From positions 2,947 through 66,946 of the forward strand of contig QPGO01000113.1 in assembly GCA_008632985.1 (NCBI GenBank): a DNA stretch of 64,000 nt. The letters run 5' to 3'. The translations under genes were made by a program, and so were the position numbers. Positions 24,601-64,000 of this stretch are shown one piece after another. The notes under the pieces were generated by a model that worked only from the letters and a program-made list of their open reading frames with translations, searched no databases and had not been told where the DNA came from. The DNA is from Psammoneis japonica (lineage: Eukaryota). Within the stretch, counting starts at the first letter, position 1, and each line of letters opens with the position of its first letter.

Positions 24601-26323
24601 GTCACTGGACCATTGGAACTTCAGTTCTTGCACAGTGAAAAGTGGCCCAATCTTGCACTCAAATGTGTCAAGTGCACTGTGCCTCTGTGTTTGTTTGAAG
24701 GCAGGGTCATTGTTTGGCACTGTTTTTTTTTTTAAATGGCTCATGATTTTCCCATTTTCCAGCACTTTGCCTGTGTCATTTTGTGATGCCTCTGAGCACC
24801 CCAAAACACTTGCGAGCATTTCCAGCCCCCATCAGGGCTGGCAGACCTTTGTGTGAGCTGCACTCGTTGACCTTCAAATGCCAATTGTTGGTTTTGGTGC
24901 AGTTGTTGTGTTCAACAAACCACCATTTTTTGCCAAAGTTGGGCCACTTGTGGCAAACAAGCCACAGCTTTCCAGGAAATGCCAATGGCTTGCATTTGAT
25001 TTGCTGTGGACATGTCTGCAGTTGACAAGCCAAGCATCTCACAACAACTGTCACATGTGCATTCTGTGATGTCTTGTCAACAGACAAAGTTGGGCCTGTT
25101 GCTGAAATTTGTGTTTGCTGAATGTGCGCAATTGGCGCAAGGAGTCCAGGTTTTTGATGAAGCAAAAATGTGAGCTCTGCACAAAGTCGACAGCCAAACA
25201 ATGACCCATCCTTGATCTGAATTTTCTTGTGCAATGTGGCAGGAAAATTCAAGTCAAAACCAAGATTTGTTGAACAACATGCAGGAAAATTCAAATCAAA
25301 AGCAAGAAATGTGTGTTGGGCTCAAGTGACAAAAATTTCGTGCGAGCGCGCATGCACTCCCAGGTCATTGTGACACTGGGTGCAGCCCTCCCCATTGCTT
25401 GCTGAGAGCAGCTGTGTCATTGGCACTCCAGAGAGCAGCTCTGCACACCTGCCAGCAGGTGGGGCCATTGACTGTTTGCACCAAGCAGCCAACAACATCA
25501 AATGCCAGCCATGGAAATTCTCAAGGCGTGCAGCGGACGCTTCTTTCAATGCTCCAGACAGCTTGGCTCTCCTTGCCAAGGCTGGCTGGGCAACTTTCTG
25601 TTGTTGATGGCAGCTCCACCCATCCACCCAATGCTGCTCTTTTGTTCCTCTTTGTGCAACAGCCCCCCCCCCCTTCTTTCTCTGCCTGTGCGGCGCCATT
25701 TGCCGCTCTGCCAAACAAGCCACATGACTTGCTTGTGGCTCTTTAAAAAAAGGAGATCAAGAGGGTCAGGCCAAGCCAAGCTGTGGTGCTGCTGAGTCAA
25801 CCAAGACAGCACTGGGCAAGGTCTCTTCTTCGCCCTGTGCCCACAAGCCAAGATTCCTGGGCCAGCTGGCGCTGCTTGAGCTCATCCCCTCGCTCAATCC
25901 AGTGGGTTTTTTCCGTGTGTGAAGCTGCTGCCACATGGAGCTGTTGGTCATGCTGTTTGTGTGTGGGGAGAAAGAGCAACCATTGTTTTTGGATTCTGTT
26001 TTGTGCTGCTTCTGGAGGTTGATTGCGTTTGTTTGCATCCAACAGAAGCGCGTCACCTGCAGAGCTGACGCCCAACGCCAACGCCGGCGGCCGCCGCCAA
26101 CGCACAGCACACGCACTGCATGCACTTCGTACTTCTAGCAACAAGCCGAATCCGACCGACCATCACCCATCACCCATCACTCATGCAGCACAACGCACGC
26201 ACAACTCACGATCTCTCCCAAAGCAACAAACAACCACACGCAGTCGACTCGTTTCCCTTCATATGAACCTTTAACATCAATCAGATCAAACAGAGTGAGT
26301 CATTTAGCCAAACGTACAACAAC

Positions 26324-45418: not shown

Positions 45419-48178
45419 ATGGATTTTATTGCTAGGCATGGCCGCTTCATTTCCTTTACGGTATTCTTGCTACTATGGCTGCCGTTTCACCAATCAGATG
45501 TTCCGTTTGCAGCAGCCTGGGTCGGAAACTACAAGCTAAACAGCATTATACGCCGACAGCAACCGCGAGAGCACCGCAAAGACATGTCGCGGGCGTTGCC
45601 TGTTCCATCATCTCATGGTGGACTTGGCGCATCTGTGTCTAAAATTAGTGACCAATTAGGAGACAAGAGCTACTTGACAACATTGTTGAATAGCAATGGG
45701 TACAGTGGTCGAATCCAAAGATTATCCCTAGACGCTTTGCCAGTTCTGGCTGAAACTTACCAACACGGGCAGTGGGAGCTATGTCTGGTGACTGGTTTTC
45801 AGCCATCAAGTAAGAACGATGAATGGACGACGCCGCGGATAAAAGTACAGCTAGCATCAAATACTACTACTCAGGATGAAAGAGTAGTAGATGTGGGACA
45901 GCTCACGACGATATGGGACAACATGTCTCCAATAACGCAGCAGCATCAGCTGTCACTACTGAATTCTTGGCAAAACCGAGTGGAACGTGAAGTCAACAAG
46001 TTCCCAGTCCAACATGGGGAGAGGGCTATGCAGCGCTTGTATCAAAGTCGCGTCGGATTACCACGCAAGTCATCGTCCAAAACGGGTCTCACAAAGAAAC
46101 AAATAAATAAACTTGTGGATGGGACGCCTAATTGCGAGAGTCGTCGTCAACTCACAGAGAGCGTCTTGCGCAAGGTCGTCAAGGCCGGAGTAGGCTTTTC
46201 CCGGCTTGCTGATTCTGGTAGCTCTATGGATTATCTATACAACGATTACCCGACAAACGAGAAGGATTTGCTTCTAAGGCGGATGGTGGGAGCCTATGTG
46301 TTGTCTCGTGATGCTGAGCTTGGTGGCCGATTCAAGCGAATGCCCTGCACCTTTGTGTCAGCACAATTGTGTGACCAAAATAACACAGTCGAGAGCATAA
46401 CGTTGGTGAATGGAGGTTGGCTAGCTGTTGACCGGAGCGTTCGTGCAGGAACAGAAGCACGCAAGTTTGTTCATCGTTCAGAGTCAAACAACGTCTCTCG
46501 TGTTGACGCGAACGACACTCGTGTGCAGCTCATTACCGTAGCAGACGAAAGAATCGCACAGAGACTTGAATGCCTTGCCATGGGGCAGCTCTTTTCCTGG
46601 AATAGCAATGCTGGTGGAAAAGGAGACGACTGGGAACAAAACTTGGAAATTGACGTTAGAGAAACTCTAAAGGCGATGAAGTTGCCCACAACACCCGAAG
46701 GAGCACAGCAAGCTCTACTGAAAATTGGTCGGTGGTCGCAAAAGCCTGATGCCGTTCGACTCGAACCGTGGTCGCAGTCAACTCTTGATGCAGCTCGTTG
46801 GTTTGCTGATATGGACAAAAAGAGAAGACGCTTCCTTTGCGATAGCATCGAAACTGCACGGAGCACCGAAAGCAAATGCGGAAACGCGGAGAATCGAACA
46901 GATCTGACCTTCCTACCGTGTGTCTGTGTTGACGCCAAGCGCACATCCTTCCGAGACGATGCCATTGGTGTGAGACCTCGAAGCATCACTGGGAGGAAAG
47001 TAATCCCCGACGCGTCCAAATACGAAATCTTGGTTCACATTGCAGATGTGTCAGATATATACGCCCCCAGTCCGCAGCAGACCGACAACGGCAAAGCATT
47101 TCGTCTTTTGAGGGAGGCTGCAGAAAAGAGGGGCACTAGTCGATATGACCTTCCACTTGGACCATTGCATCTCATGCCACCCATCGCATTAAACGCTTTG
47201 TCATTGGATACTATTAACATTGATATGACGGGGGCAGAAGTAGGCGACGGGGAAAATGTTGGTGCCAATCGTTGCGTGACTATGTGGGCATATATCGACG
47301 AAAGATCGGGAAAAATTATCGATGCTGGTTTCGAGAGATCGCTTGTTTCAAATCCCTTGGCGCTGTCTTTTGCTGATGCATCAGAACTATTAGAAGGTAA
47401 TGTGTCGAACCGCAGAAGGTTGCTTGATCAGGATGGCACCCTGAGAAAAGTGAAGGCAATATTGGCCGTCGTAGAACGAAATCTTCTTCTGTGGTCTGCA
47501 GACCGTCGCAGGAATGACGAAGCAGCTCGAAAGCGAGAAGCACGGTTTGCTGTCAAAGAACTTGTGGCGAAGGAAATGAAGGGTGGTCGAAACATTCGAG
47601 ACGATGGTCGTGACGGCTTCCAGCGAACTCGAGGACATAAGATAGTAGATGCTGCTTTGGAGCTCTACGGGCACGGTGTAATAAGCCTGCTTCGTCGTGC
47701 CGGAGCCCCCCTTCCTAGCAGCGGCGCGTCCCGCGGAGCGAGGGTGGCAACTGCACCCCTCCGTCGCTACATTGATGGTGTAGCTCAAAGGCAAACGCTC
47801 TCTGTGCTATGTCGCTACGGTGGTCGTCCACTGACAAGAAACGAATGTAAACAAGCCAGAAGTATTGCAGATCGGGCAGACAAGGCGGTGTCAAACATTC
47901 GCGCTATAAAACAAGGAAGCAGCATTGTTGGAATCAATCAAGGTCGCCAACAACAAGCCCTAAGATTGCTACAGGCAGAATTGGCAGGCAGGAATCGACC
48001 GATTCCTGCAATAAGCACAGGAAGAGAAAATGAAGTTGCTATTGTTGGTGTCGGGGCTGTCGCAAAATGTAGGGGTGTGAAAGGGTCGTTATCACCTGGA
48101 AAACAGATACTAGTTAATGTGCGGAAGCTCGATGCCCAGAAAGGAATATTGTCGGTCACATTGGCAAGAGATAGCTAG
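45419..48178 (+). CDS. RNB-domain (RNase II/R-like) exoribonuclease, probably organelle-targeted
   Basis: CVDAKRTSFRDDAIGV, ILVHIADV, RGTSRYDLP, ATAPLRRYID; hydrophobic N-terminus followed by AAW. Confidence 0.82.
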   Translation: MDFIARHGRFISFTVFLLLWLPFHQSDVPFAAAWVGNYKLNSIIRRQQPREHRKDMSRALPVPSSHGGLGASVSKISDQLGDKSYLTTLLNSNGYSGRIQRLSLDALPVLAETYQHGQWELCLVTGFQPSSKNDEWTTPRIKVQLASNTTTQDERVVDVGQLTTIWDNMSPITQQHQLSLLNSWQNRVEREVNKFPVQHGERAMQRLYQSRVGLPRKSSSKTGLTKKQINKLVDGTPNCESRRQLTESVLRKVVKAGVGFSRLADSGSSMDYLYNDYPTNEKDLLLRRMVGAYVLSRDAELGGRFKRMPCTFVSAQLCDQNNTVESITLVNGGWLAVDRSVRAGTEARKFVHRSESNNVSRVDANDTRVQLITVADERIAQRLECLAMGQLFSWNSNAGGKGDDWEQNLEIDVRETLKAMKLPTTPEGAQQALLKIGRWSQKPDAVRLEPWSQSTLDAARWFADMDKKRRRFLCDSIETARSTESKCGNAENRTDLTFLPCVCVDAKRTSFRDDAIGVRPRSITGRKVIPDASKYEILVHIADVSDIYAPSPQQTDNGKAFRLLREAAEKRGTSRYDLPLGPLHLMPPIALNALSLDTINIDMTGAEVGDGENVGANRCVTMWAYIDERSGKIIDAGFERSLVSNPLALSFADASELLEGNVSNRRRLLDQDGTLRKVKAILAVVERNLLLWSADRRRNDEAARKREARFAVKELVAKEMKGGRNIRDDGRDGFQRTRGHKIVDAALELYGHGVISLLRRAGAPLPSSGASRGARVATAPLRRYIDGVAQRQTLSVLCRYGGRPLTRNECKQARSIADRADKAVSNIRAIKQGSSIVGINQGRQQQALRLLQAELAGRNRPIPAISTGRENEVAIVGVGAVAKCRGVKGSLSPGKQILVNVRKLDAQKGILSVTLARDS

Positions 48179-48477
48179 ACGAGGCATGCTGAATACATAT
48201 TCGCTGGACATGTCGAGTACAAGAAGTCGTTCTCATGTCCTGGTATGGAATGGACACTGTGTGCATGATAGAGGGTTTGTTAAACATTGTTCGGTTGCAC
48301 CAGTAATAGCCATTCGCGTTCACGCTAAGGTTACTAGCGTGGCAAGATACATTTTTGCTGTCATGCATAGGACTATCATTCTAAGTGCTCAAAAACTTTC
48401 GCAATGCTTCTATTTCTACGCATCGTCTAAGTTCTCCCTGTATTCGTGTACGCCTGTATTCAAATCACTGGGAATCA

Positions 48478-48680
48478 TCTACTCTCTCTCTACTCTCTAC
48501 GGTAGCTACTAGCTAGAGAGTACTCTAGTAGTAGAGTACTGTAGTAGTAGCTACTCTCACTACTAGAGCTAGAGCTCTACTCTAGTAGTAGTAGAGACTA
48601 GAGTAGCTCTACTCTACTCTCTAGCAGGGGCTACTAGCTAGAGTAGCTCTACAGTAGAGAGGAGTAGATAGAGAGACTAT
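48478..48680. repeat. Low-complexity TAG/CTA/GAG tract
   Basis: ctactagctagagagtactctagtagtagagtactgtagtagtagctac...; very TA-dense, essentially no AA/TT. Confidence 0.85.
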
Positions 48681-48849
48681 AATCTAAAATCGAAATCGCA
48701 CATTTCTAATGCTGAGCACGAGCTACGAGTTCCATTTTTTCCTGATGAGCAGACACACGCGCCACCAGCCATCACGATGATGATTATTCGCGGTGCGACC
48801 TGTCTGCAATGGATAGCTAACTCTACCTGTACACCGATGAACGTTGCAC

Positions 48850-49314
48850 ATGACAAACAGAATGGACGAAGTTGACCGAGTTGCAAACCGAGTGTCTTTG
48901 GCGGCCATAGCAGGACTCATTTCTGGAGCTTCATACGCAACTTATCGGGGTGCGCCGGTTTTGCGCACCGCCATGTCCGTGGCTGGTTCTTGCGCTCTGC
49001 TTGGAACTGCTTGTTTTGGGACGGAGAGGCTTGCAAACGTTGCACTGAAACAAGTGATACCTCATGATGATAAGAAGAAACGTGATAGATTATTTTTTAC
49101 TTCGCATGCAATTGGCGGTCTCGCTGGGGGAGGCATTGCGGGCGGACTATTTCACAGACACCCGGTCCCCGGCATGTTGTTGTTTGCACCAGTTATGCTG
49201 ACAGTGGCATGGGCTGAACTTCAATTTGAAGAAGAGAGAGTAAAGCGTATTCAAAGAGCCATAGAGGAACGGGAAGCTGCACTCGAAGACTATGGAGTGG
49301 ATAGCAATGATTGA
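48850..49314 (+). CDS. Small multi-pass membrane protein, possibly Tim17/Tim22/Tim23-like
   Basis: Gly/Ala-rich hydrophobic helices with GxxxG motifs (AIGGLAGGGIAGG) and a charged C-terminal tail. Confidence 0.6.
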   Translation: MTNRMDEVDRVANRVSLAAIAGLISGASYATYRGAPVLRTAMSVAGSCALLGTACFGTERLANVALKQVIPHDDKKKRDRLFFTSHAIGGLAGGGIAGGLFHRHPVPGMLLFAPVMLTVAWAELQFEEERVKRIQRAIEEREAALEDYGVDSND

Positions 49315-50690
49315 CGGAAGTACAAGTCGACATACCGGTAGAACGGGTCTCCTAGTTGAAACGAAGTTTTGGGTCTCTTTTTGCAGGACTCACATAGTGG
49401 TATTAGTTTGAACATAACAGGAGCCTAGCGATCTCTTCCTGTTATTTCATTGTTGATGACGATTGTATGGGACGAATCCGAGAATCGCAATGACTTCTAG
49501 ATTTCTCAATAAACCAAAGAATGATGAGTGAAACTATCGGCCCGAGAGCGCACAGGTTCACCGCAATACGAAGGTCTGGATAGCCCTACCGTATTGCTCT
49601 ATTCGTTTTTCGAGTTATGTTTCTTTTCTCTCACCGTATGAACCGAAGCAAAATTCGTCCATAGGCGTTTGTGGTAGCTGTCCATATTCTCTGTTCATCA
49701 CAATCACTACTGCAAAGTGTCTACAGCCCGAGGAATCATGCGCTTTGATCTCCATAGATGACAAAGCTATTGACTCCAACAAAAGTCGTGGTCTTGCGTT
49801 TTACAATTCCAGAATCATTAAATTTTCATGAGTATTTAAGATACAGATTGTGCTCACTAGAGGGCCTGCCGGTACAGGCCTTACTGCGGCATTCGGGAAA
49901 ATGCCACCAATGGATTACGACGTTACTCTCAAGGTCTACAGAGTATGACAGATTCCGAGATGACAGAACTTTAATGTTGATCCTGCTTTTGCAACACCTG
50001 GCAACCACAGTCCTAAATGGCCATAAAACCCTCAAGCAACAGTCACAACCCACGTGTTATCAGCCGCAGCCCATGCAATACTAGCCAAAACCCGTTCTGG
50101 GTCAGGATATTTTTTTCTCTGTTTGCGTAGTCCATGCGCGAGATCCCCGTAATCCGATGAGTGGAAGCTTGCCGCGGTATTCAGTGCAACTGCCATCACT
50201 CTTCATCGTCACATCAAGGGCATTCGTCTCTTTTTCCATGAAGAAATTGTTGTATCCCTGCAGGATGCTCAAACTGTCATGATCTTTAAGAAATTTTTAG
50301 TGTTTGGAGAAAGGATAAAAATTGTGTTGTTCACAGATTGTTCCTTTCGGTGTGTCAACCATTGGCGCCTTTTCCGCTGATTTTGCCACGAGCGAAAAGT
50401 GAAAGTGGCGCGACCTTGCTAATATTCATATTTAGCTCTGCATATAAAATACATTTTTTTGAATGTTCATGCCGTATACCGGGTACCGGTACATACAGTA
50501 CGAACGATCGACAGACTTGATGATGAGAGCCACTAAAAAAAAAGGCGGGAAATCAACATCAAAAACAGCAATTTCGTTAGTTGTAAGTCTGAAGTCCGAA
50601 GCCACTCTCATCAGTTACGCTGCTACTGGGCAACCAGCTTCTAGCTAGAGATTTGTTTGGTCAAAGGACTTGAGCCGCTTCGTCTAAACC

Positions 50691-53064
50691 ATGGAAGATC
50701 GAGAATCATCACTGACGGACTTTCGAGAAATTCTGTCTCAACCCGAAGACACCTTGTTGTCGCTTCTTCGTCCTGAGCAAAATGTTTCTGCCAAGGAAAT
50801 TAAAAATCAGTTGCGTGAAACCTGTCGACATCTCTTTCTGGAAGTGGAACAACTTTCCAAGGCACATCATGCATTGAGAAATAATACTGCGAAAGGCGAT
50901 GAACCACCAGAGTCGTCCCTCTCTGGCTTGGACCAGTTGTACACTGGGACGGAAGAGCAGCCCGTGGACGCAGAGACACTGTGGGGTCAGATCGAGATAC
51001 AGAATACAGCGTTACAACCGCTTTTAAAAAAGTCGCTGAAACGTGTAATCAAAGCCATGGATGGAGAAAGAGGTGACGAGGTGCGCCTGTTGGACCTTGG
51101 CGGCGTCTTGAGCGACGACGAGGAGTCAGAAAAAGAAGGAGAAGAAGAAGACGTGGGCGCGAATGGAACTGAGCCGTCGTCCGAAGAACAAGATGACAAC
51201 GACGACGACGCGGACGAAGAAACATTGCGTATGCGCAAAAGGATGGAACGAGCAATGGCTGACATGGCTGACAGCGATGCTTCCGATATTGACCAGGCAC
51301 AAAAGAAAGATGAGGAGGAAAACGAAACCGAGGAGGAATCGTTGGTTGACCCCGCCGCCGAAGAATTGAACAATGGGTTCTTTGATATAAATGAAATGGA
51401 GGCCTTTGCAGATGAAGAGGAGGATTATTTGCCCGAGGAAGCGTTTGGAACTCCCCGGCCTGAAGATACCCGCAAGAAGGAAAAGAAGTCGTTTCATCAA
51501 CGACAACGTGAAGGTGATATTGGATCATCAAGCGATGAGTCTGACGAAGAGGAAGAAGTAATCTTTGGTGAAGCCGAGGGACAGCCTCATATTCGCAGGC
51601 GAAAGTATCGAGATGACGACGAAATCAAACAATTGTATAAAATGTATGAGACTCCCGACGGTGAGGGGGAGGAGGACGAGGGTGACGACGCGATCAATAT
51701 GACTGCGGCAGACTTTTTTGGCATGCCCAATAAGAAGTACTTTCACAAATGGAAAACAGGAAATAGCGAGTCTCTGAATCAAAACCCGGAACATTATGGA
51801 GATGAAGATGACAATGATTCTTGGGATGACCACGATTTTGGACAAAGTGACGACAAATCTGGCGGATGGCGCAATACAAGTAAAATTCAAGACGACCACG
51901 ACGAAGGGGATGAAAGTGACAAACCTGATGAAACCCTGGATGGTGACGAGGGCGAACTTTCAAAGCGAAAACAAACCAAAAGGCTAGATAAGCTACTTCA
52001 GCAAACAGAACAACTGGAAAAGGATATGCTTGCCGAAAAACCGTGGCAGATGACTGGTGAAACAAAATCCACATCGCGACCAGTCAACTCTTTGCTTGAA
52101 GCAACACCGGAATTTGAAGTTGCCACTAAAATGGCCCCCATTATCACAGTTGAACACACGACCAATCTGGAAGAAGTGATTAAGCGCCGCATTCTTAACG
52201 AAGACTGGGACGACGTTATCCCTCGAGAACTACCCGACATTGGGTGGCACAAGAATCGGTCCGAAGCACCTGAAGTGAGTCAAGAAAAATCAAAGCTAGG
52301 TCTAGGTGAACTGTACGAACGGGAGTATTTGAAGAAAGCAGTTGGGTATGATGTAGAGGCTGTTGAGAAACAAACAGAAGAAGAAAAGGCTAAGAATGAG
52401 ATGAAGGCGCTGTTTGCCAATTTGTGCAGCAAATTGGATGCTTTGTCGAATTACCACTTTGCTCCGCGACCAATCTCCAGCGAGACTGAGGTTAGACCGG
52501 TTTCTACGCCAGCCATCGCAATGGAAGAGGTCCTGCCGTTGCACGTCAGTGATGCAAGGGGTGTAGCCCCGGAAGAGGTGTACGGGAAAAAGAGAGGTCG
52601 CGACGGAGTCCTTCGCGGGGAAACAGAGCTGGACCAGGTATGCTTTGATATTGTGGTTCGCATTCATTGTAATTACTCCGTATTCTTATTCTATCTCTGC
52701 ATCCTGTCTTTGCTTGTGTCACCAGGCGGAACGCAAGAGACTCCGCGGCGCTAAGAAGACAGCCCGAAGAAAGAAACGAAAGGAGAAGCTTGCGGACGAG
52801 AAGCTCATTTCACGGTTGGAACCCGGCCTTGGCCTCAACAATCCTTACGAAAAGAGAAAGCATCGAGAAGAAATGGCTATTGCACGGGCTCAGGACAAGG
52901 TCACCACTGGCAAGATGGATGCCAATGCCGACTATGGCGCAAGTGGCAAATTCTTCAAACGGATGCAGGAGCAAGTGGAGCAAACAGTGAAAGGGGAAGG
53001 CCCTTCCGATAAGATAACGAAGCCGCAAAAACATGGCAAAAAATCCAGTTCATTTAAGCTCTAG
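50691..53064 (+). CDS. MPP10: U3 snoRNP protein Mpp10; intron 52638-52725
   Basis: Acidic middle region; KPWQMTGE, RPVNSLLE, SQEKSKLGLGELYEREY, KLDALSNYHFAP, PAIAMEEVLP; ends SSSFKL. Confidence 0.95.
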
Positions 53065-53114
53065 CCTCCTTAGTACTAGTTAAAGTTTCTTCCCTTACGC
53101 CTTCGCCGAGCACT

Positions 53115-53999
53115 TCAATAAAGCTTCTTTCTGCGCAACAGAAAATTCTCTTGTTTCTGAATTTCAAGTAGCAAATCGATTTCATCGAGGACAATCTCGC
53201 GAATGAAGAAGTCGAGTATTTTGGGTGTTGGTGATGGATCACGAGGAACATAATAGGAAAAGCCAGCAAAAGATCGTTTCTCTAGGTCACCAGCGCGGGC
53301 CTTTATGAACTTTCGGTAATCACGATCGCTTTCTGTTGATTTCGATCCTTGATTCTCGTGTTGCGTTACATCCAGTACATATTGACGATGAAAAGCATAG
53401 ACTTTTTCCTCTTCAACTTGAGTGATACCCACAGGCCTGGCAGCATTTAGCGTTTTTGCTTTTCCTTTCAGCTTTTCCTTTGGCGAGCTAGAATTTACAG
53501 CAAGCACGCCATTTTTCAACGTTCGGTCCAGATACAGATCAAACGGCGAATAGAGGTGGCGCTTTGACCACCAGAGAATCAAATGATCACGAAACGTCCC
53601 GCCACAAAACATGCATCTATCTGGACTATGCGCACTGGGTGGATACAACAGCTTCAGGATAGACCCAGGTTCAATTCTAACAAACCTGCGCCCCCCTCGT
53701 CCTTCGTATATCTTATCTCTCATCAGATAATGACATAAGTGGTATTTCGCAGCCGACAACGCATCCCACACAAATACACCGCAAGCTCGTCGATTGGAAG
53801 CGATACTTGAAATCGCTGTGACAGTTTTCTGATCTTGCTTTGACACTGTTTGAGTAATCTTTTCAGCAAGCTTGAGAGGTTCCCATCGAGGCCTTCTCGG
53901 CCATGATTGGCTTGGTTTTTCTAGGGTTGCACCCCGCACTCCTTCGATTGAGAAGAAAATGACTTTTGCTAGTATGAACAACGCCGCAAACCCTTTCAT
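53115..53999 (-). CDS. Hypothetical protein with signal peptide (294 aa)
   Basis: Intact ORF of normal composition (Tyr present) with a hydrophobic N-terminus; no family recognised. Confidence 0.65.
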   Translation of the reverse strand: MKGFAALFILAKVIFFSIEGVRGATLEKPSQSWPRRPRWEPLKLAEKITQTVSKQDQKTVTAISSIASNRRACGVFVWDALSAAKYHLCHYLMRDKIYEGRGGRRFVRIEPGSILKLLYPPSAHSPDRCMFCGGTFRDHLILWWSKRHLYSPFDLYLDRTLKNGVLAVNSSSPKEKLKGKAKTLNAARPVGITQVEEEKVYAFHRQYVLDVTQHENQGSKSTESDRDYRKFIKARAGDLEKRSFAGFSYYVPRDPSPTPKILDFFIREIVLDEIDLLLEIQKQENFLLRRKKLY

Positions 54000-54120
54000 T
54001 GTCTAAAAATCAAGTGCGCGGTAGTGAGCACCATCGTCATCGCTGCCGCAAGGTGCGAGGTGCGCGCCAAGCTAAATTCCGCGCCATACTGTAGGAAGTC
54101 ATGGGATCCACGGTGACATG

Positions 54121-54294
54121 TGCAGTAACTCACTCGCACGCTTCTGACATAGTATATTAATTTTGGATATTAGATTAACGTAGCCGTTTGAGAGGGCTCG
54201 CCAGCACTCGCCAGCGCTCGCTGACGCTTAGGCTCTCCCTCTCTTCGGTCTACTCACTTCTTTGTTTTGACATCAACCTCAGCTTGAGCTTGCA
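54121..54294 (+). repeat. 5' LTR (174 bp, TA mostly retained)
   Basis: TGCAGTAACT...GAGCTTGCA; collinear with 59409-59592. Confidence 0.95.
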
Positions 54295-54505
54295 CTGTAA
54301 TTACAGTCGATTGTAAAGAGCTGAATGAGAAATAACGACACAATTAACAGGCTTGCGAAACAAGAGAAAAGAACTTTGAGAGCGAAGGCAGCGAGTTGGG
54401 CTTTGGAACAAAAACGAGAAAAGGAGACACGAAAACAACGCGAACAGGATTTGGTGATTCGGGTGGCAAAACTCAAATCGAAGGTAGAGCACTTGAAACA
54501 GTTTC

Positions 54506-55741
54506 TTGGTGGACCAACTTGGCCTGATGAGCAATCGCGAGAGCCTTGGGGAACCGTGCATTTTGCATGCTGCGAAATTTGCTCACTCGGGTTTGGAGCT
54601 CGCAAAATTGACTCAATCGCATGACGATGGAAGCACGCGTACGAAAAAGTGCCCTTGTTTTGACGGAAGCAATGGAATTGAAGTGTTGTTGTTTGTGGAA
54701 GATCGTTTTCGTAAACTGGCTGCAAAACTCGAGTTCACTGCAGGAGAAGAATCATTTGACAATTTTGAAGAAGCACTGACGGACACAGCTGAAGACAAAT
54801 GGTCCAATCTCACCATGGCGATTCCAGATGCGCAGAAAACGGCAGCTCGTTTCGACCAAGAGTTGGCTCGTTTTTATTTGTCACATTGTGAAACTGAAGC
54901 TCATGACACGATGATTGAATGCTTGCTTGCTCTTAAAAAGCCGCGCGACGTTGAAGCACAGGCACACGCAGATCGAATGGAAACTTTGGCACGACACACA
55001 AACAAGTTGCCGGGAAATAATCCAGTTGTCACTCAGAACCAAAAGAAGAAGATGATTTTTGACAGCTTCCCTCTGTCGTGGCGCAAGATGCACACAAGAG
55101 CAGGACGCACGATTGGAAATGACACGCTGGCGGAAATGGTCACGCACATGAGCACGGAGAAATCGTTTGCGGACAGGAACAAGAAGACGTCGAAAAAGTG
55201 CAAAGATGGACAGAACAAAGGCAGCTCGAACAAGAAGAAAGGCAATCGCATTGACCCAGAGCCCCAATGTCCATTGCACACTCACAATCACAAGTGGAAA
55301 GATTGCGCCATGAATCCCGACTCCAACAACTGCCGTCCAAGAACTGATCGCGGCGGTCATGGATGCAGTGGCCGTGGTGGTCGAGGTGGCGGTCGCGGTG
55401 GAGGTCGTGGTTGTGGCGGAAATCAAGGTCGTGGTTGGCAAGGCCGTGGATGTCAAGGTCGTGGTGGTGGCCGAGGAAATTGTGGCGGTCGAGGAAACCA
55501 CAACTCTGGCGGCAACAGCGGCGAGCATCATGAAGATGGTGGCTCCCACACGCAATGTCAAAACAACACCCGAGCCAGTGCAGATGGTGGCGGTTGCCGC
55601 AATCCGGCCAGAATGGCTCCTCCCAATGATTGGTCTGCTGAAAGCCATCATCTTGATTCCACAGGAGGGCCTCGTGAGTGTCGAGGTGGAGCGGGAAGTT
55701 TTCGACCTGGTGGTCGCTTCTCGGGACGCGGTCGACACTGA
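54506..55741 (+). pseudogene. Gypsy gag with CxxH-H-W-C knuckle and RGG-rich tail
   Basis: Long open frame; CPLHTHNHKWKDC; GRGGRGG repeats; true start uncertain. Confidence 0.8.
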
Positions 55742-55792
55742 CCCAATGAGCTTGAAGAGCTGTCGTCCGAGTGTGTCGCTCCTGATTCCCAC

Positions 55793-58700
55793 ATGTTTGA
55801 TGATTGCACTGATTGCATTGATGATTGTCGTGCACATGCTGCTGATTTGTTTGATGATGACGATTTCGAAAATCACACCATGAATGACGAAGACGATGTG
55901 GGACTTGAGTGCGCTGTGCCAACCCCAAAAACAAAACCAACCAAACCTTTGAATGTGGTCCCTGCAACCTCATTCACGGCGTGATTCATTCAAGACAAGG
56001 AAAGCAAGCGCGTGATGCGGGTGTTGCTCGACTCTGGTGGAACCCATTCAATGATTCATGCTCGGGTGTTGCCAGTTGGAGCGGCGCCAGCATTGGAGGA
56101 CACAGGACCAATTGTTGCGAAGTTTCAGACGTTGGTGGGAGAACTCAAATCTGCTCGTTACGTTCGACTGCGGGATGTGGTGCTCCCTGAATTTGACAAG
56201 ACCAAACATGTTGATGGCATGCATGTGCATGTGTTTGACTCACCTTGCCTGCACGATGTGATCCTTGGACAGGACTTCTTGGCGAGAGCAGGCATCACGT
56301 CAGATTTCGAACACGGAATTGTCAAGTGGCTCGATTCAAGCACATTGCAATGAAACCAAGAAACCATCGGATTGGCATCCAGCAGTGGCTTGACGACTTG
56401 ACTGATGAGCCAGCTGACGATGATGATGCATGGGACAGCTGCATCCTCGATGCAAAGCATGAGGAGACGTCCCCTTCTGAAGTGGCATTGGCTCAGAAGC
56501 ATCTCACTGCCGAACAACAAGAAAAATTGTGCCTCGCATTGGAAAAACACACTGCTCTTTTTGGTGGCACTCTCGGCAAGCATGCTGGCGAAAAATTTCA
56601 CCTTGATGTTGATCCCAACGCTGTTCCTTGCCATTCTCGAGCGTGTGCAGCACCGCACAATGATCTCGAGACTTTCAAACAAGAACTGGATCATTTGGTG
56701 GCTCTTGGCGTTCTTGAAGAAGCCGGAACAATGGAGTGGGCTGCTGGTGCTTTCATTCGGCCAAAGAAGGATGGTCGAGTGCGGTGGCTCAGCGATTTTC
56801 GGGAACTCAACAAAGCACTCAAGCGCAAGGTTTGTCCTTTGCCGATCATTCAAGATGTGCTGCAGAAGAGAGCCGGGTGCAAGTTTTTGACCAAATTGGA
56901 CCTCTCAATGATGTGCCGTGCACTCGAATTGGATGACGATTCCAAGGACTTGACGACAATCGTGACGCCCTTTGGAAAGTGCCGATGCTGCCATTCAGCA
57001 ATGGGTCTGAAGCCGGCTCCAGACATTGCACAATGTTTGATTGAGAAAACTGTGCACGACTTGGATGTTGACGCGTGTGTTGATGATCTCGCTCAATTTG
57101 ATGATGACTTTGACATTCACCTTGACCGCCTTGATGAACTCTCACAACGCTTGGAAGAAGCTGGGTTCAAAGTAAATCCCTTGAAATGCGAATGGTGGGT
57201 GCAGGAAACGGATTTCCTTGGGCACCGGCTAACTCCGACTGGAATTCATCCGTGGAAGAAAAAGGTGGAGGCTGTCCTGTGAATGCAACCTCCGGAAAAC
57301 ATCAAGCAGCTTCGTTCGTTCCTTGGCGCTGCAACGCATTGTCGCAAAATGTGGCCTTGGCGTTCTCACCCATTGAAACCCTTGACAGATCTTACAGGCA
57401 AAGGCTCATGGACATGGACAATGGAATGTCAGGCGGCGTTCGATGAGATGAAAGCAGTCCTGGCGGCTGAAACATCAACGGCACATCCGAATCACAACAA
57501 ACCCTTCCATGTCTGCACCGATGCAAGTGATCACCAGATCGGTGCAGTGATTGTGCAGGATGGAAAGCCCATTGCATGCTGGTCTCAAAAGCTCAATGCG
57601 GCACAACAAAACCATTTGACGATCGAAAAAGAACTGTTGGCCATTGTCATGTGCTTCCGAGAATGCCGATCGATGCTCCTTGGCGGCGACTTGCATGCAT
57701 TCACTGACCACAAGAACCTCACCTTTCGCACCTTGAATTCACAGCGCGCACTTCGTTGGCGACTCCTTCTGGAAGACTTTTCTCCTCAGTTTCATTGCAT
57801 TGAAGGCCGATTGAATGTCTTGGCTGATTGTTTTTCTTGTTTACCTCGCATGGATCCTCCCTCTGAAGGGAAGAGCTTGGCTCCGGGCAAAGGAACTGTT
57901 GTTGATTTTGCTCCGCTCGATTCGAAGTTGGTGCCGAGTGAGGAACCATCCGAAGTCGAGGATTTCCGCAATGAGGACTTGGAGCTCGGCGCATGCCGAT
58001 TTAAGTGTTGTCGCAACATTGAAAATGAAGGCCACTCACACTTCTTCTCTTTCTTTGTGGATGAGCCGGAGCTGTTCGATTCTTTCTTGAATTGCCCTGT
58101 GATGCAAGAGATGCAGAATCCGATGACGTTGCAATGCATTCAGGAGCACCAGTTCGAGGACCGACAGTTGAACCAGATGCGCGCTGCTCACCCTGATCGT
58201 TCCCTCGTGGAACATGTGAACAATTGACCACTTGTGTGTTGTTGCATGCGACCGAATGATCCTCCAGGACAGTGGAAAATCTGTTTGCCGACTGCGCTCA
58301 TGCCCGACATCTTGCGGTGGTGTCATCTCGTCCTTGGCCATGCCGGAAGCCAGCGCATGCGTGAAACGATCCAGGCTCATTGTTGTCATCCTGGGTTGCA
58401 TTGCATGTGTGATGAATGCTCTTGTGCTGGTTGCCAATGCAACAAAACTTTGGGTCCTGGCTGTGGAGAGTTGCCCGAGCGAGAAGCTCCATTGACTCCC
58501 TGGTCGGAAGTGGCGGTTGACCTCATTGGCCCATGGAAAATCAAAGCACCGAATGGAGAGATTGAGTTTCGGGCATTGACCTGCATTGATCCTGTCTCCA
58601 ATCTTGTTGAACTTGTGAGAATTGAAAATGAAACTACCCGACATGTTGCCAACCAATTTGAAAACTGCTGGCTTGCATGCTGTCCCAGACCGAATCGATG

Positions 58701-59286
58701 CATCCACGACAATGGCGGCGAGTTCACCGGGTGCGATTTTCAGATGCTGTTGCAACAAGCCAGAATTGATGATGTGCCGACTGCTTCATGCAACCCTCAA
58801 GCCAGCGCCATTTGCAAATGAATGCACCAGACCGTCGGCAATGTGTTGCGCATGCTCATTGCTTCTAACCCACCTCAAAATCTTCAAGATGCAGCTGGCC
58901 TCGTGGACGATGCTTTGGCAACTGCAATGCATGCAACTCGCTGTGCTGTTTCCCGTTCTTTACAGACTTCGCCAGGTGCTGTGGTGTTCGGATGTGACAT
59001 GATCCTAGATGTCCCTGTGCTGGCAGACTTGTTGACGATCCAAGGCCATCGCCAGACGCTGATCAACAACAGTTTGTGAAGAGCCAATGCCAAGAGAAGA
59101 TCCTGCGATTGTCAAGTGGGTGATCAAGTTCTGATCAAGTCGGTTGACCCGTCCAGACTCGAGCCTCATGCTCATGGCCCTCATCCCATTGTTCAAGTGC
59201 ATGTGAGTGGCGCGCTTTCGCTTCGTCGAGCTCCTCATGTGGTTGAGCGCCTCAACATTTGGCACCTGATTCCTTTTCGTGGTTGA
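55793..59286 (+). pseudogene. Gypsy pol (PR-RT-RH-IN) with frameshifts, TGA stops and Tyr->Cys/His substitutions
   Basis: VLLDSGGT; FLTKLDLSMMC; PFGKCRCC; ACVDDL; VCTDASDHQIG; NHLTIEKELLA; EVAVDLIGPW; HDNGGEF. Confidence 0.92.
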
Positions 59287-59408
59287 TCAGGGGGTTTTCT
59301 TCCCAACACCTGGGTTTCCTCCTGCCATTGTGATTTCTTTGGGTTTTTGTCCCTGGTTTTGGCCCTTTGCATGATCCTCTGGTTCTTTCGGATCATGGAA
59401 GGGAAGAG

Positions 59409-59592
59409 TGCAGCAACTCACTCGCACGCTTCTGATGTGTGGTGTCAATTTTCGACATTGGATTAACACAGCCGTTTGAGAGGGCTCGCCAGCACTCGCC
59501 AGCACTCGCCAGCGCTCGCTGACGCTTGGGCTCTCCCTCTCTTCGGCCCACTCACTTCTTTGTTTTGACATCAACCTCAACTTGAGCTTGCA
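59409..59592 (+). repeat. 3' LTR (184 bp, TA-erased, one extra AGCACTCGCC unit)
   Basis: Follows the PPT; followed by the TSD. Confidence 0.95.
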
Positions 59593-60778
59593 ACATGGCG
59601 AGGAGCGAGAAGTGCTGGGCTTTGTGCCATGTCACCTTTTGATCAAGCTCTGATGGTGGAGAACATTGACATGAAAGGGAACAACATCCACACAGCTGCG
59701 ACACACATGGCTTGGGGGTGACACCATCAGAGCGCAGAGGGCCCACCACTGAAAAGCCAGGGAGGGGGCCAGATCACGGGGCCTGCTGCTGGCGACGATG
59801 CAGCACGGTGATCTGCTGAGCTGCTGTCATCCTCAGCCACAGGATTGGCCTGCAGCTGGGGATGCACATTTTTGTGAGATTTTGTCAGGAACTCGGAGCC
59901 CACCAAATCATGAACATGTGAGGGCAGCTCCCAACAAGCCGGAGCTTGCTGCCAGCATTGTGCTGTTCTTTTGCTGTCTTCTCTTGCACTGAGTGGGCCA
60001 GCTGGTGGTGCAAACAATTGCTTGTGTCCACTCAAGAAAACAGCAGCTCTCTCCGCCTGTTGTCACATCTCCAACATCTTGCTGGTCCCAAGACCACTCA
60101 TTCTTTGACTTGCCGCCACATGTGAAAGCTTCCTTGACATGGTTGCAGGCAACAAGTGCAGTTGAAGATTGTCACATTGTGGTTGTGCACAATCTGTGGT
60201 GCAACAAGCATGAGAGAGGGGTGGCACAAAGTGCGGGGGATGATGGCTTGCCTCAGCAAGGTCTGTGCTCCTGGCGCTGACATCAAGCACAACTTGGTCT
60301 GAGCCATCAGGCAACATCTCTTCTGTCAGAAGCCATGGTGCTGTTTTGGCAACCCAACATGCTCTCCAATGTGACTGATGCATTTCCAAGCAGCCCCTGC
60401 ACCAACACGACACACACACAGCCCCCTTTTTCGCAGCAGACAGTTGCAACATCAACAAAGGTGATGTGCCACAACATTGTTGAAGCTGTCTCGAGGAAAT
60501 GTGTTGTTCATCTCAAAATGCTGATTTCAGATGTGTGGTGGGTTGGGGGATGCTGGCCTCATTGCCTGTTGTGGCTTGCACGTGAAAGAGCAGCGTCTCG
60601 TTGTTTGCAGCCGATGGGGGCTTGTTTCTGACAAGCTCGCACCAGTGTGCTTGTCAAGTGGAACCTGCCAATCCAAAACAGTGGAAAAATGAGACTGCTT
60701 GCTGACAGACCTGGCCAACAGCTCCACCCACATTCCCGCCACCATCTCAGATGCCGAGTTTCTCAAGAGGTCCCCTTG

Positions 60779-63700
60779 TGCACTGTGCTCGAAGAACGAG
60801 TGTAAACGAAAGTAGAGCAGTGTACGAAAAGTGGAAATTATAAGATTGGATTTTACTCTGTGATTTTTGGTTTCTCCGAATGAGTTCTCAATGGCCTGAA
60901 GCTTCTGCACTGCTTCCACAGACAAAAGGCCTTTCGGAGAACATGATCGTGACAACAGACAGTCCGAATGCGATTGCTTTTGACACATGAGATGTCAGCA
61001 TCGTCCATCGATCGCATTTGCGATTTTCGACTTCCGATCAACTCTGTGTGATTGTTCTGTCCTTCGCACGCATCCACGACTGTGGCACAATTGACGTGCA
61101 AACAACATGCAATCACACACATGTGTGCAACAGTCGCGTGCTGCACTCGCCTCCCTAATTGCACATTAGAGTCATTTGTTGAGTGGATTGTTTGACGGAC
61201 ATTGACAGTGTCAATGATGTCTCCACGTTCACTGCATTGTGCCATTGGCAATGACTGTTGTCGTTTTGTGTGGGCCATGTGGGGCCGTTCCAATTTCCGA
61301 ATGTCTTGTGAGAGTGACATCGTTTGTTTCTCACTTTGTGCACATGCATGTGCAGCATTGCGTCGAGCATTCTCGTTGACGTTCTTTGTTGACATGAACA
61401 CAAGGACCAATTGTCCTGCAGTGTTTTTCATGACATCGATTGCACCTGGCATTGTGCCCAGCACTCAATGTGCGCTCTTTTAATTGTTGTGGCGTTCACT
61501 TCACTTGTGGAGTTCATGCAGTTCTGGCTGGCTAACTTTGCATGTGCCACATTGCTCTGCTGCACTTCCATGTGTCGTAAGTGGTTGACGATGGTCAAGG
61601 ACATTTTCCAACCATTTTTTCTTGACAATCCTGGGATGGTTGTGGACTCCTTTATGGATTTCTTTGTCACTTCAACCATCTTTCCTTTGGATTTTGATTG
61701 TCATTTGGACGTTTCTTTTTGACATGCCGGTGACATTTTGTCATTCCGAAGGCACTGCTTTTGTGCACTGTTCGGACAAATGTCCATTTTTGTGTTTTGT
61801 TTCTGAATCTTTGGCACATCTCGTGTGACGTTGTTTATGTCTTGCCTCGTACATCGTACACTGCAATCGTGCGGGTGCTGCGAGATTGTCTTTTGCCAAT
61901 GTGAAGTGGGTGCGTGCAATGCACACCAATCTGTCACTGATTTTTTCTTCAACCGTCCCCAAGCAAGGCGATTTTTTCCTTGTGACATGAGCATTTTTGA
62001 TCTCGCTCGAAAAGTGTTCGCATGACATGTCGCGTCCGACAATTTGGAGGAAATGTCTTTGTCCCGTTTTGTTCAGTGTCGAGAACTTTGCAATTTAATG
62101 GAAAGACATTGTCGCAGGATTTTGGTGGGACCTTTTCAGCTGACTCTTCTGTGCTGAGGTTTTCCACAGGTTCTATTTTTTTTCACAGCAAGTCGGCTGA
62201 TCGCTCTTGCGACGCGTTCGCCTTGCCCTCGATGCATTTTATTTCGGGACTGGAATTCTGCATTCTAAGTCGTCAACGCATGACTCTGTCCGTTGTGTGT
62301 CATGAACCGCACACATGACAATCTGTTGGCCAAACAGCACATTCCGGGAATTGTCAAGTGTTTCCACTGTGGACAGAAGTTCTTTTTCCGTTGTGACTTG
62401 AACATCACAATGCCATGTTTGACAGTGACACAGTTTTTGATGTGATGCGCTCCATGTTTTCGGAGACTTTTCGTTCTGCACTTGTCCTTTTGCCGTTTGA
62501 CCTTTGTTGAGGTGGATTTGGCTAGAAATGCACAGGAGATCATTGAGACTACATGTCTTTACAGTGGCAACATGTGTCGACAAGCTGTCGTAATTTTCTT
62601 TGCGTTTTGCTCAATGTTGCGATTGCCGGAATCGCCTCCATTTTCTTTGCAATCGGATGCATGCCATTGCGCATGGAAGTCTTGATAATTTTTTTCAAGT
62701 CAAGCAGTGAAGGACTTTTGTTTGTCAACCTTCAAAGCGACTGCTCCAGTTGCATGAATGCCATTTCAAGTTTTTCTTGTGCAGGTGACATTTTGAAGTT
62801 GTTTTCTGTCAGGTGCAAATGTTCATTCTCAGTCGTTCTGACAACTCCAAACCTGCCATGAGTTCGCTCATGCGTTGCACGAAAATGTGTGGGGCTCCAC
62901 AGATTCTTGTCGGAAGTCCACAGCACTCATTTTCCCCCACGGCATCACTCTGATGTGAGCACGACGTGTGCTTTTTGATTTTACATTGTGGTGTTCCATG
63001 ATTGAATCGCAACTTCATTTTTAAAACTTCAATCTTTCACAATTGGTTGAATTCCTTTCAAATGAATGCCTCCAAAGACCATGACAGGAGAAGGTTCTCA
63101 CACGTCGTGGAATCGCGTCAGATTTTTTCACGGCGAGATCCATTGATTCTTTTAATTCATTTGTCCAAGGAACTTTTCAAAAGGATTTCAAACCTCTTAA
63201 GAAGGAGACTGAGTGGTTTATCTTCTTTTGGTCAAGATGCATTGCTGCAGCTGTCACTTGATTAGAATCGACGGCGTGACAATGTGAGTCGAGAACCATC
63301 GGTCTCGTCATTGACTCTGTTCACCGCGCAATGTTTTTCAATGTGATCGGCATTCAGCTGGAACATTTCTGCATCGAAGAGTGCATCAACATTCTTCATG
63401 GGGCAATTGCTTCATTCCCATTTGATTTCTTCAATTGCGCAGTCTAGTGTGATTGCAAAACTGGACATTGAGTCGCGTCCCATGATCATGTCATTCGACC
63501 TTGAAGGGCATTTGGTGTCATTGACACACACTGTTTGAACATCAGCAAGTCTTAAATTCGCGCACTGAGAACTGAATTCGGTGTTTGCCATCAGTCGTAA
63601 AGAGCTCACCCTTGGTTTCCCAAGTTTTTTGGTGGCGGATGTCTTGGTTCTCAACTTTGCACGATTTTGCACAAAATCATGGGCTGACGATGTTCTTCAT

Positions 63701-63800
63701 CGAGAGAACACGCAGAAGCTCATTTTTTGCTTTTCTCAGAGAAGTGGTCATGTGGACAGCGAGAATGGGACTCGCACAACACACTGTGATGCTTTTTCTG
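60779..63800 (-). mobile_element. Degraded Ty3/gypsy element (pol + 3' LTR), related to the relics at 4.9-6.9 kb and 22.3-24.6 kb
   Basis: Minus strand TTEKELLSTVETL, CGLPTRICGAP, LLCISS, VPPKSCDNVFPL (compare VTPESRDNVFPL near 24.07 kb); LTR homologous to 4920-5261. Confidence 0.85.
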
Positions 63801-64000
63801 GGTTTCCAGACGTCCTGTGGTGCGCTGTGCTCCTTGAGCGGCATAAATTTTTGATCGGACTCGATCGGGTCAATTTTTCTAAATTGACAGTTTCACTTGT
63901 CAAGCGTTTTAGAGTCTTAATTTTCGCTCTTGTTTTTACGTTCCTTTGTCGAGGAACTCGCTTTGATTGTTTTTGTGAACTGCCTGGTTCACAGTTCAGT

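Follow-up and report, generated by a model that had tools for sequence, protein, structure and literature searches.

An LTR pair in a diatom genome records post-integration conversion of TpA to CpA or TpG

Within a single Ty3/gypsy-type insertion in the diatom Psammoneis japonica, TpA dinucleotides present in the 5' long terminal repeat (LTR) read CpA or TpG in the 3' LTR. We attribute this to a process that acts on chromosomal DNA after integration, converting TpA to CpA or TpG throughout a bounded territory that includes the 3' LTR and runs on into old repeats (probability about 0.8). The sequence documents the dinucleotide context and the direction of the change, its post-integration timing in the LTRs, its two outcomes and the structure of the territory, and the case rests on one element and one LTR pair. 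The window, meaning the whole 64,000-nucleotide stretch of contig DNA that was analysed, is eukaryotic and intron-poor, with long open frames encoding Sec7, RNB, SMC, Mpp10 and CLPTM1 domains. Its Mpp10 frame (50688-52754) has best matches of ~58% identity, and all of the named ones are raphid pennate diatoms (Fistulifera, Cylindrotheca, Nitzschia, Entomoneis, Mayamaea, Seminavis and Amphora).

The element occupies 5,472 bp at 54121-59592, with 59409-59592 as its 3' LTR. Its parts, and the open frame nearest to it, are as follows:

53115..54002, - strand: 295-codon open frame in TA-normal DNA, starting 120 bp from the 5' LTR
54116..54120, + strand: left copy of the target-site duplication (TSD), ACATG, the same letters as 59593-59597
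54121..54294, + strand: 5' LTR, 174 bp, TG...CA, 11 TA; rho_TA ~0.9 together with the leader
54295..54306, + strand: perfect 12-nt palindrome at the expected primer-binding site, read off the sequence
54497..55741, + strand: gag-like open frame with an RGG-rich tail of 18-bp periodicity, 0 Pfam matches
55985..56353, + strand: aspartic protease (Pfam Asp_protease_2, E=3.9e-6)
56239..59289, + strand: pol (RT, RNase H, integrase), a single frame with 5 in-frame TGA stops
59397..59408, + strand: polypurine tract directly 5' of the 3' LTR, read off the sequence
59409..59592, + strand: 3' LTR, 184 bp, TG...CA, 1 TA, with one extra 10-bp unit relative to the 5' LTR
59593..59597, + strand: right copy of the TSD, ACATG, inside a single-copy contig (record 6 of run X1)

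The order of Pfam domains (protease, RT, RNase H, integrase) is that of Ty3/gypsy elements. Pol matches RVT_1 (5.7e-12) and RT_RNaseH_2 (4e-27), while its matches to rve and Integrase_H2C2 fall below the curated cut-offs, and homologs 45-61% identical carry both of these domains; the 120 pol homologs listed are 42-69% identical by best local alignment. No TGG-type primer-binding site was seen on reading the sequence directly after the 5' LTR, where the palindrome stands instead, and no second copy of the element occurs within the 64-kb window. The periodic repeat in the gag tail lies at 55356-55492 and encodes RGG-type units. The frame to the left of the element (53115-53999, - strand) was assigned to no family, its best protein-atlas score of 0.80 being below the counting level.

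In a global alignment the two LTRs differ by 18 substitutions, of which 15 are transitions and 3 are transversions, and by a single 10-bp indel. Realignment returned the same TA counts as the original prediction, made from the sequence alone, namely 11 in the 5' LTR and 1 in the 3' LTR, with CG at 10 versus 11 and CA+TG at 21 versus 33; all of the paired examples it quoted are present in the two LTRs, and the site at which it had noticed CA in one LTR opposite TG in the other was located at 54148-9 (CA) and 59436-7 (TG). Of the eleven TA in the 5' LTR, ten read otherwise in the 3' LTR, five as CA (5'-LTR positions 54126, 54158, 54168, 54181 and 54251) and five as TG (54151, 54154, 54156, 54172 and 54230), interleaved over 130 bp, the change at 54153-54154 lying within a messy GTA/TGG cluster with two transversions adjoining. 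The sole TA of the 3' LTR (59464) is TA in the 5' LTR too (54176), and is part of a TTAA. Differing bases make up 11 of the 22 within TA and 7 of the 152 elsewhere (Fisher p=1.8e-7, for one LTR pair), a pattern far beyond chance. The contrary case, in which differences at TA are no commoner than other transitions, had been put forward along with the prediction, and this pair gives the opposite: 10 of the 15 transitions fall at TA, affecting 10/22 TA bases against 5/152 others (p=2.5e-7).

Reverse transcription makes both LTRs of an insertion from a single template. Here the TSD, described beforehand as intact, does match at 5 of 5 letters on the two sides, which identifies the LTRs as those of one insertion, and it follows that the differences between them arose after integration. 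Editing of single-stranded RNA or of minus-strand cDNA yields one polarity only; because CA and TG both occur, and are interleaved, both strands must have been hit, and editing of RNA or cDNA is insufficient. The prediction that the changes arose after integration, in DNA and on both strands, is thereby upheld by the asymmetry of the LTRs, the 5/5 TSD and the five CA plus five TG outcomes. Its accompanying argument against RNA or cDNA editing holds for the LTR differences, but less completely for the interior, where some sense-strand change at the RNA level may have preceded integration, given that TG outnumbers CA on that strand of pol. Action in place, on chromosomal DNA, is indicated indirectly, by LTR asymmetry, by the presence of both polarities and by a graded edge to the affected territory.

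Whether TA was lost from the 3' LTR or gained in the 5' LTR is undecidable from the LTR pair alone, and the pol coding region was therefore used. Pol has no tyrosine in 1,017 codons, compared with 3.5% in homologs, and its YxDD motif reads CVDD. In an alignment of 40 homologs (P0121-P0160, 49-61% identical), with a conserved column defined as at least 70% Tyr, all 23 conserved Tyr columns are changed in the window, 15 to TGY, 6 to CAY and 2 to CGT; they read CHHCCCCRCCHCHCHCHCCRCCC, with CA and TG outcomes interleaved. Conserved residues other than Tyr are retained at 70-100%, the lowest being T (19/27). Nucleotide counts give a matching balance: pol of the window holds 2.9 TA/kb against 55.7 ± 13.7 in relatives (the 31 of 75 metagenome relatives with matches of at least 2.5 kb), and the TA deficit of 52.8/kb stands beside a CA+TG gain of 50.0/kb, with CG unchanged. 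No 1-kb stretch in any of the 75 metagenome relative loci falls below a rho_TA of 0.32; because intact copies are favoured by the search patterns and the ranking, these loci serve as a baseline and do not speak for absence elsewhere in diatoms. Given that the conserved Tyr columns are changed in 23 of 23 cases, TA was lost, by conversion to CA or TG, and not gained. The double-changed outcome, CGT, is rare (2/23), in keeping with a process whose hit abolishes the site it acts on.

On the sense strand of pol TG outnumbers CA, by 15 to 6 at Tyr codons and by an excess of 43/kb to 7/kb, the latter figures being measured against relatives whose G+C is lower. A related but older copy of pol has no sense-strand bias (233 vs 233), and such a bias was set aside as a general rule, having been seen in this pol only and not in the older copy or other territories. 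All five in-frame stops of pol are TGA, four of which fit a change of CGA to TGA; at stop positions Arg is found in 24, 39 and 30 of the aligned homologs, and other copies of the element have C at 57280. Conversion of TA to CA or TG makes no stop from any sense codon and removes TAA and TAG, so that mutated elements retain long frames whose predicted proteins are Tyr-free and rich in Cys and His. Separately, one Logan-derived relative (P0211, 60% identical) has 1.5% Tyr compared with ~3.5% in other homologs, and in four consecutive columns among 11 conserved for Tyr it has H, C, C, C; by its sequence this patch looks like the same signature in another data set, and may be worth pursuing as a lead.

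TA depletion in the window is organised into territories, which, with the stretches that adjoin or serve to compare them, are:

1-7566, unstranded: TA-free stretch, rho_TA 0.04
7945-11250, unstranded: TA-free stretch, rho_TA 0.01
20530-26129, unstranded: TA-free stretch, rho_TA 0.04
26130-54120, unstranded: genic comparison stretch, rho_TA 0.57
54346..55018, + strand: graded edge, 5 TA in 673 bp (7.4/kb), kept and converted sites interleaved
55019..60802, unstranded: TA-free core, 11 TA in 5,784 bp
59593..60802, unstranded: right flank, 0 TA in 1,210 bp, single-copy by depth, rho_CG 0.31
60803..64000, - strand: very high-copy degenerate repeat, 11.9 TA/kb, rho 0.16, partly TA-depleted

The four TA-free territories have rho_TA of 0.00-0.04 and rho_CA and rho_TG of 1.4-1.9; within the core, rho_TA is 0.04 in 55019-59592 and 0.00 in 59593-60802. 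TA is dense up to 54345, that is through the 5' LTR and leader, and the TA-free territory begins ~230 bp inside the element. In the graded edge TA is kept at 54712, 54875, 54934 and 55018, and at 54753-4 and 54774-5 within it, as also at 55366-7, the window has CA where other copies, in contigs of run X1, have TG. Since kept TA interleave with converted sites in 54346-55018, the evidence points to a graded edge and not to a recombination breakpoint. The left flank is TA-normal and holds the neighbouring open frame, whose start lies 120 bp away from the 5' LTR. The right flank is CpG-poorer than the element (rho_CG 0.31 vs 0.79) and on that account older, so it was probably free of TA before the element inserted at its edge; it follows that the flank does not prove that one event struck element and flank together. 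The old territories have rho_CG of 0.09-0.24 and contain degenerate retroelement remains. Among 77 open frames in the TA-free territories, the only meaningful Pfam matches were Integrase_H2C2 (24216-24635) and a zinc knuckle (7401-7942). The repeat at 60803-64000 is related to parts of the window at 22.3-24.2 kb and 5-7 kb.

Several other features of this landscape deserve mention. A 377-bp island at 7567-7943, with 63.7 TA/kb and 61 CpG/kb, sits inside TA-free, CpG-poor territory and directly precedes the window's only N (7944); the frame that ends at the island carries a gag-type zinc knuckle (Pfam zf-CCHC, E=2e-4). The island could be a young insertion cut by the gap, or an assembly patch. 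The 7.5 kb between two TA-free territories at 13000-20500 have a TA rho of 0.86 and normal CpG, with no open frame above 136 codons, no Pfam match and no long repeats, and the 32 open frames of 11.8-20.5 kb likewise returned 0 Pfam families. Tandem repeats of 150-200 bp, with G+C of 0.55 and strong strand skew, occupy 20700-21949 at the start of the 20.5-26.1 kb territory. Summed contig depth over 60424-64000 is 4,000-21,000, compared with 62 in unique DNA.

Confidence in the assembly derives from the contigs of a public run, X1, which were compared with 46000-64000; X1 contains 0.61 of the sampled words, and it represents one sample from one study that may be the window assembly's own. Record 1 of X1 (9,421 bp, depth 61.9) covers 46000-54184 with 2 letters differing, so that the unique left flank continues into the TA-rich 5' LTR for its first 64 bp, and record 6 (1,257 bp, depth 63.5) covers 59550-60806 with 1 letter differing, spanning the 3' LTR end, the TSD and the TA-free right flank. 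The only three contig-versus-window differences (50633, 51391 and 59902) are A in the window and G in X1, none of them at TA. The element interior appears in X1 as short, diverged contigs at depths of 1,000-3,000, and by depth the family has ~20-50 copies. As the family is multi-copy the interior join is unbridged, none of the X1 contigs listed running from the 5' LTR to the TA-free interior, and linkage of the two rests on the assembly and the TSD. The worry, voiced with the original prediction, that the 5' LTR might be a polishing or collapse consensus is accordingly met in part: both outer junctions are reproduced at single-copy depth, while the interior join is not spanned. With single-copy contigs confirming both junctions and a TSD of 5/5, a polishing, collapse or base-calling artefact is unlikely. 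An empty-site joint was not among 15 of 42 joints; of two further runs, X2 covers parts of the left region only and X3 matches nothing, and no RNA run carrying the window sequence was found among the runs listed. Differences among copies of the element are mostly transitions (590 of 677 places: A>G 129, T>C 127, C>T 171 and G>A 163, compared with 4-15 in each of the eight transversion classes), and among them are adjoining C>T and A>G changes, the mark of a single ancestral TA that became CA in one copy and TG in another.

By context, the TA left within the TA-free territories are not a random sample. TTAA accounts for 15 of 48 (31%) against a baseline of 3.4% (p=3.5e-11), and 38 of 48 have T before or A after (p=1.8e-9); the partly depleted repeat at 60803-64000 follows the same trend, with TTAA at 7/37. 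The TA common to both LTRs is a TTAA, and another TTAA in the LTR was converted. With one kept by both LTRs and another converted, TTAA appears to be a poor substrate and not an immune one, and TA with a preceding T or a following A also appears to be poor.

The LTR pair permits rough estimates of rate. About 11 of 12 ancestral TA were lost from the 3' LTR and about 1 of 12 from the 5' LTR, so that loss in the 3' LTR was at least 25 times faster than in a sister sequence 5.3 kb away. Hits in the 3' LTR amount to ~2.5 per TA against a background of 0.033 per dinucleotide, or ~75-fold, a rough figure from one LTR pair and a lower bound near saturation. LTR divergence is 10.3% over all sites (18/174) and 3.3% over sites not derived from TA (5/150); for this element, then, the expectation that LTR dating would overestimate age proved right, all-site divergence being inflated ~3-fold. 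Only 1 of 10 CpG was lost in the 3' LTR, compared with 10 of 11 TpA. Because that one CpG changed and four of the five pol stops fit CGA>TGA, CpG decay is also at work, as a separate process much slower than TpA loss.

As to mechanism, the change is an A:T to G:C transition that can fall on either of the two base pairs of TpA, and hence on either strand. The simplest reading, as in the proposal made for the rhizarian alga Bigelowiella natans in a recent preprint, is that an enzyme deaminates adenine in DNA; a route that modifies thymine would give the same outcomes, and since TA is palindromic the adenine and thymine routes are indistinguishable here. We infer that the process is both enzymatic and targeted. 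Silent chromatin may have extended from the old repeats across the insertion, thereby setting the territory; the spread would have halted near the neighbouring gene, whose promoter region might have shielded the 5' LTR.

Two alternatives concern the position of the border, and both keep the main conclusion. Transcription of the element itself might set where TpA is lost, in the manner of antibody somatic hypermutation, sparing the untranscribed U3 and a few hundred bases past the start site. The 3' LTR lies inside the transcription unit, TA loss begins ~160 bp past a putative TATA-like block (54153-54160) and saturates ~800 bp further on, and pol has more TG than CA outcomes on its sense strand, all of which would suit this arrangement; yet the TA-free state runs past the 3' LTR into oppositely oriented DNA, the older pol copy has no sense bias, and the leader is not generally spared, for the TA kept by the window at 54333 reads C in 12 of 12 other-copy contigs. 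We consider it unlikely. Alternatively, the whole element may have been stripped of TA in place, with its 5' LTR and leader later regained through ectopic gene conversion by an unmutated copy. Donors exist, with depth of 1,000-3,000 compared with 62, and the TSD would remain intact through such an event, but a graded edge in which kept TA interleave with converted sites is not a clean switch, the left flank beside the LTR is TA-normal, and the non-TA divergence of the two LTRs is only 5/150, making this a still less probable account than transcriptional placement.

The remaining alternatives would remove the conclusion itself. An artefact, whether two insertions joined as an assembly chimera, a consensus produced by collapse or polishing, or miscalled modified TA in long reads, has in its favour that the interior is a multi-copy repeat which short contigs do not bridge. 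Single-copy contigs nevertheless reproduce both junctions with 2 and 1 letters differing, a 5/5 TSD would arise by chance in ~1 of 1,024 cases were the ends unrelated, and the outcomes are CA or TG and rarely CG (2/23); we put the chance of an artefact as very low. Editing before integration, whether ADAR-like A-to-I editing of RNA or deamination of cDNA, accords with the preference of ADAR-type enzymes for U before the edited A (stated in bioRxiv 10.64898/2026.01.13.699255) and with the TG excess on the sense strand of pol, and the interior changes could in part have been inherited in this way. It cannot, however, make two LTRs differ, for which differences it is refuted; it gives one polarity only, against five CA and five TG in the LTR and interleaved outcomes in pol; and the single-copy flank is TA-free as well, leaving it lower still in our estimation. 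Finally, a fungal-type repeat-induced point mutation (RIP; C>T at CpA/TpG) would make the 5'-LTR TAs the derived state and the 3' LTR the unmutated one. Diatoms carry DNMT4 enzymes that group with fungal RID (PMC9998398), which lends this some background. The direction is nonetheless opposite, pol having no Tyr codons and CVDD in place of YxDD, so that the Tyr-codon test refutes it, and TA is ordinary in the 5' LTR (rho ~0.9) and at 0.04 in the 3' LTR and interior; we give this explanation practically no credence. Mutagenesis of the Pol-eta type at WA was set aside, AA not being depleted (rho 1.1-1.5). Conversion of TpA in place, after integration, is the reading we retain.

The closest precedent is in B. 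natans. According to the preprint, 230 of 231 mutations in two integrated viral regions of mutation-accumulation lines were A>G or T>C, all at TpA, with a rate of ~6e-7 per site per generation (Mettrop et al., bioRxiv 10.64898/2026.01.13.699255); TpA-poor clusters rich in CpA+TpG occur elsewhere in the B. natans genome, and an ADAT2-like deaminase is hypothesised as the agent (bioRxiv 10.64898/2026.01.13.699255). The cases agree in several respects: A>G and T>C are confined to TpA and give TpG or CpA by strand, nuclear DNA is changed in place over kilobase-scale regions of foreign origin, and the footprint is TpA depletion with gain of CpA+TpG, there enriched among reverse-transcriptase and transposase sequences. 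They differ in host (a diatom, hence a stramenopile, here; a rhizarian there), in depth of depletion (rho_TA 0.00-0.04 here vs 0.45 in the B. natans giant-virus region) and in the kind of evidence (an LTR pair here vs mutation-accumulation lines); here, moreover, borders lie inside the element and beside open frames, and TTAA is apparently spared. The present case thus fits the Bigelowiella kind by context, polarity, in-place action and footprint, and adds to it a second lineage, timing based on LTRs, depletion close to saturation, borders that fall within an element and a preference as to flanking bases. A term search of the preprint text (bioRxiv 10.64898/2026.01.13.699255) found no diatom, stramenopile, LTR or retrotransposon, and in literature searches TpA loss was found reported neither for diatoms nor for LTR pairs, the Bigelowiella preprint alone describing the signature.

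More familiar systems resemble the process in part. RIP of ascomycete fungi is likewise a DNA-level, post-integration source of dinucleotide-specific transitions on both strands that disables transposons and inflates divergence ages, but it turns CpA/TpG into TpA and creates stops, where here the exact reverse occurs and TAA and TAG are removed. APOBEC3 and ADAR editing shares the character of deaminase-type, context-specific hypermutation recorded in integrated LTR elements; those enzymes act on cDNA or RNA before integration, with one polarity and with LTRs left alike, whereas in this element the LTRs are unlike and changes of both polarities are present. CpG decay in 5mC-methylated transposons similarly erodes a palindromic dinucleotide to TG/CA, regionally and in a chromatin-linked way, and is itself visible within this window (rho_CG 0.09-0.31 in old territories, CGA>TGA stops in pol). 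It differs from TpA loss in dinucleotide and base, and is slower in the same LTR, at 1/10 CpG vs 10/11 TpA.

The LTR pair is in effect a natural experiment, which times mutation of TpA to CpA/TpG after integration and places it on chromosomal DNA. Taken together with the Bigelowiella preprint, it suggests that a second algal lineage, and an ecologically dominant one, has a RIP-like defence whose chemistry runs in reverse. A wider proposal, to which we give somewhat less than even weight, is that diatoms have a territory-bound genome-defence mutator at TpA, the same as that of Bigelowiella, old and SAR-wide, and the counterpart of RIP in reverse chemistry. If this is true, the mutator would act by adenine deamination or its equivalent on both strands of silent DNA, far faster than CpG decay and with a preference for TA that has neither T before nor A after it, and would erase Tyr codons, TATA-like boxes and TAA/TAG stops while creating no stop codons. 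For work on these genomes, LTR ages are inflated (~3-fold here) unless TA-derived sites are masked, and gene callers will accept the Tyr-free, Cys- and His-rich "proteins" of mutated elements. A difference in TA loss of at least 25-fold between LTRs 5.3 kb apart offers a sharp mark for mapping the bounds of the process, and as some diatoms are transformable the mutator could be sought genetically. More broadly, the G+C content and dinucleotide statistics of diatom repeats would be shaped by TpA loss.
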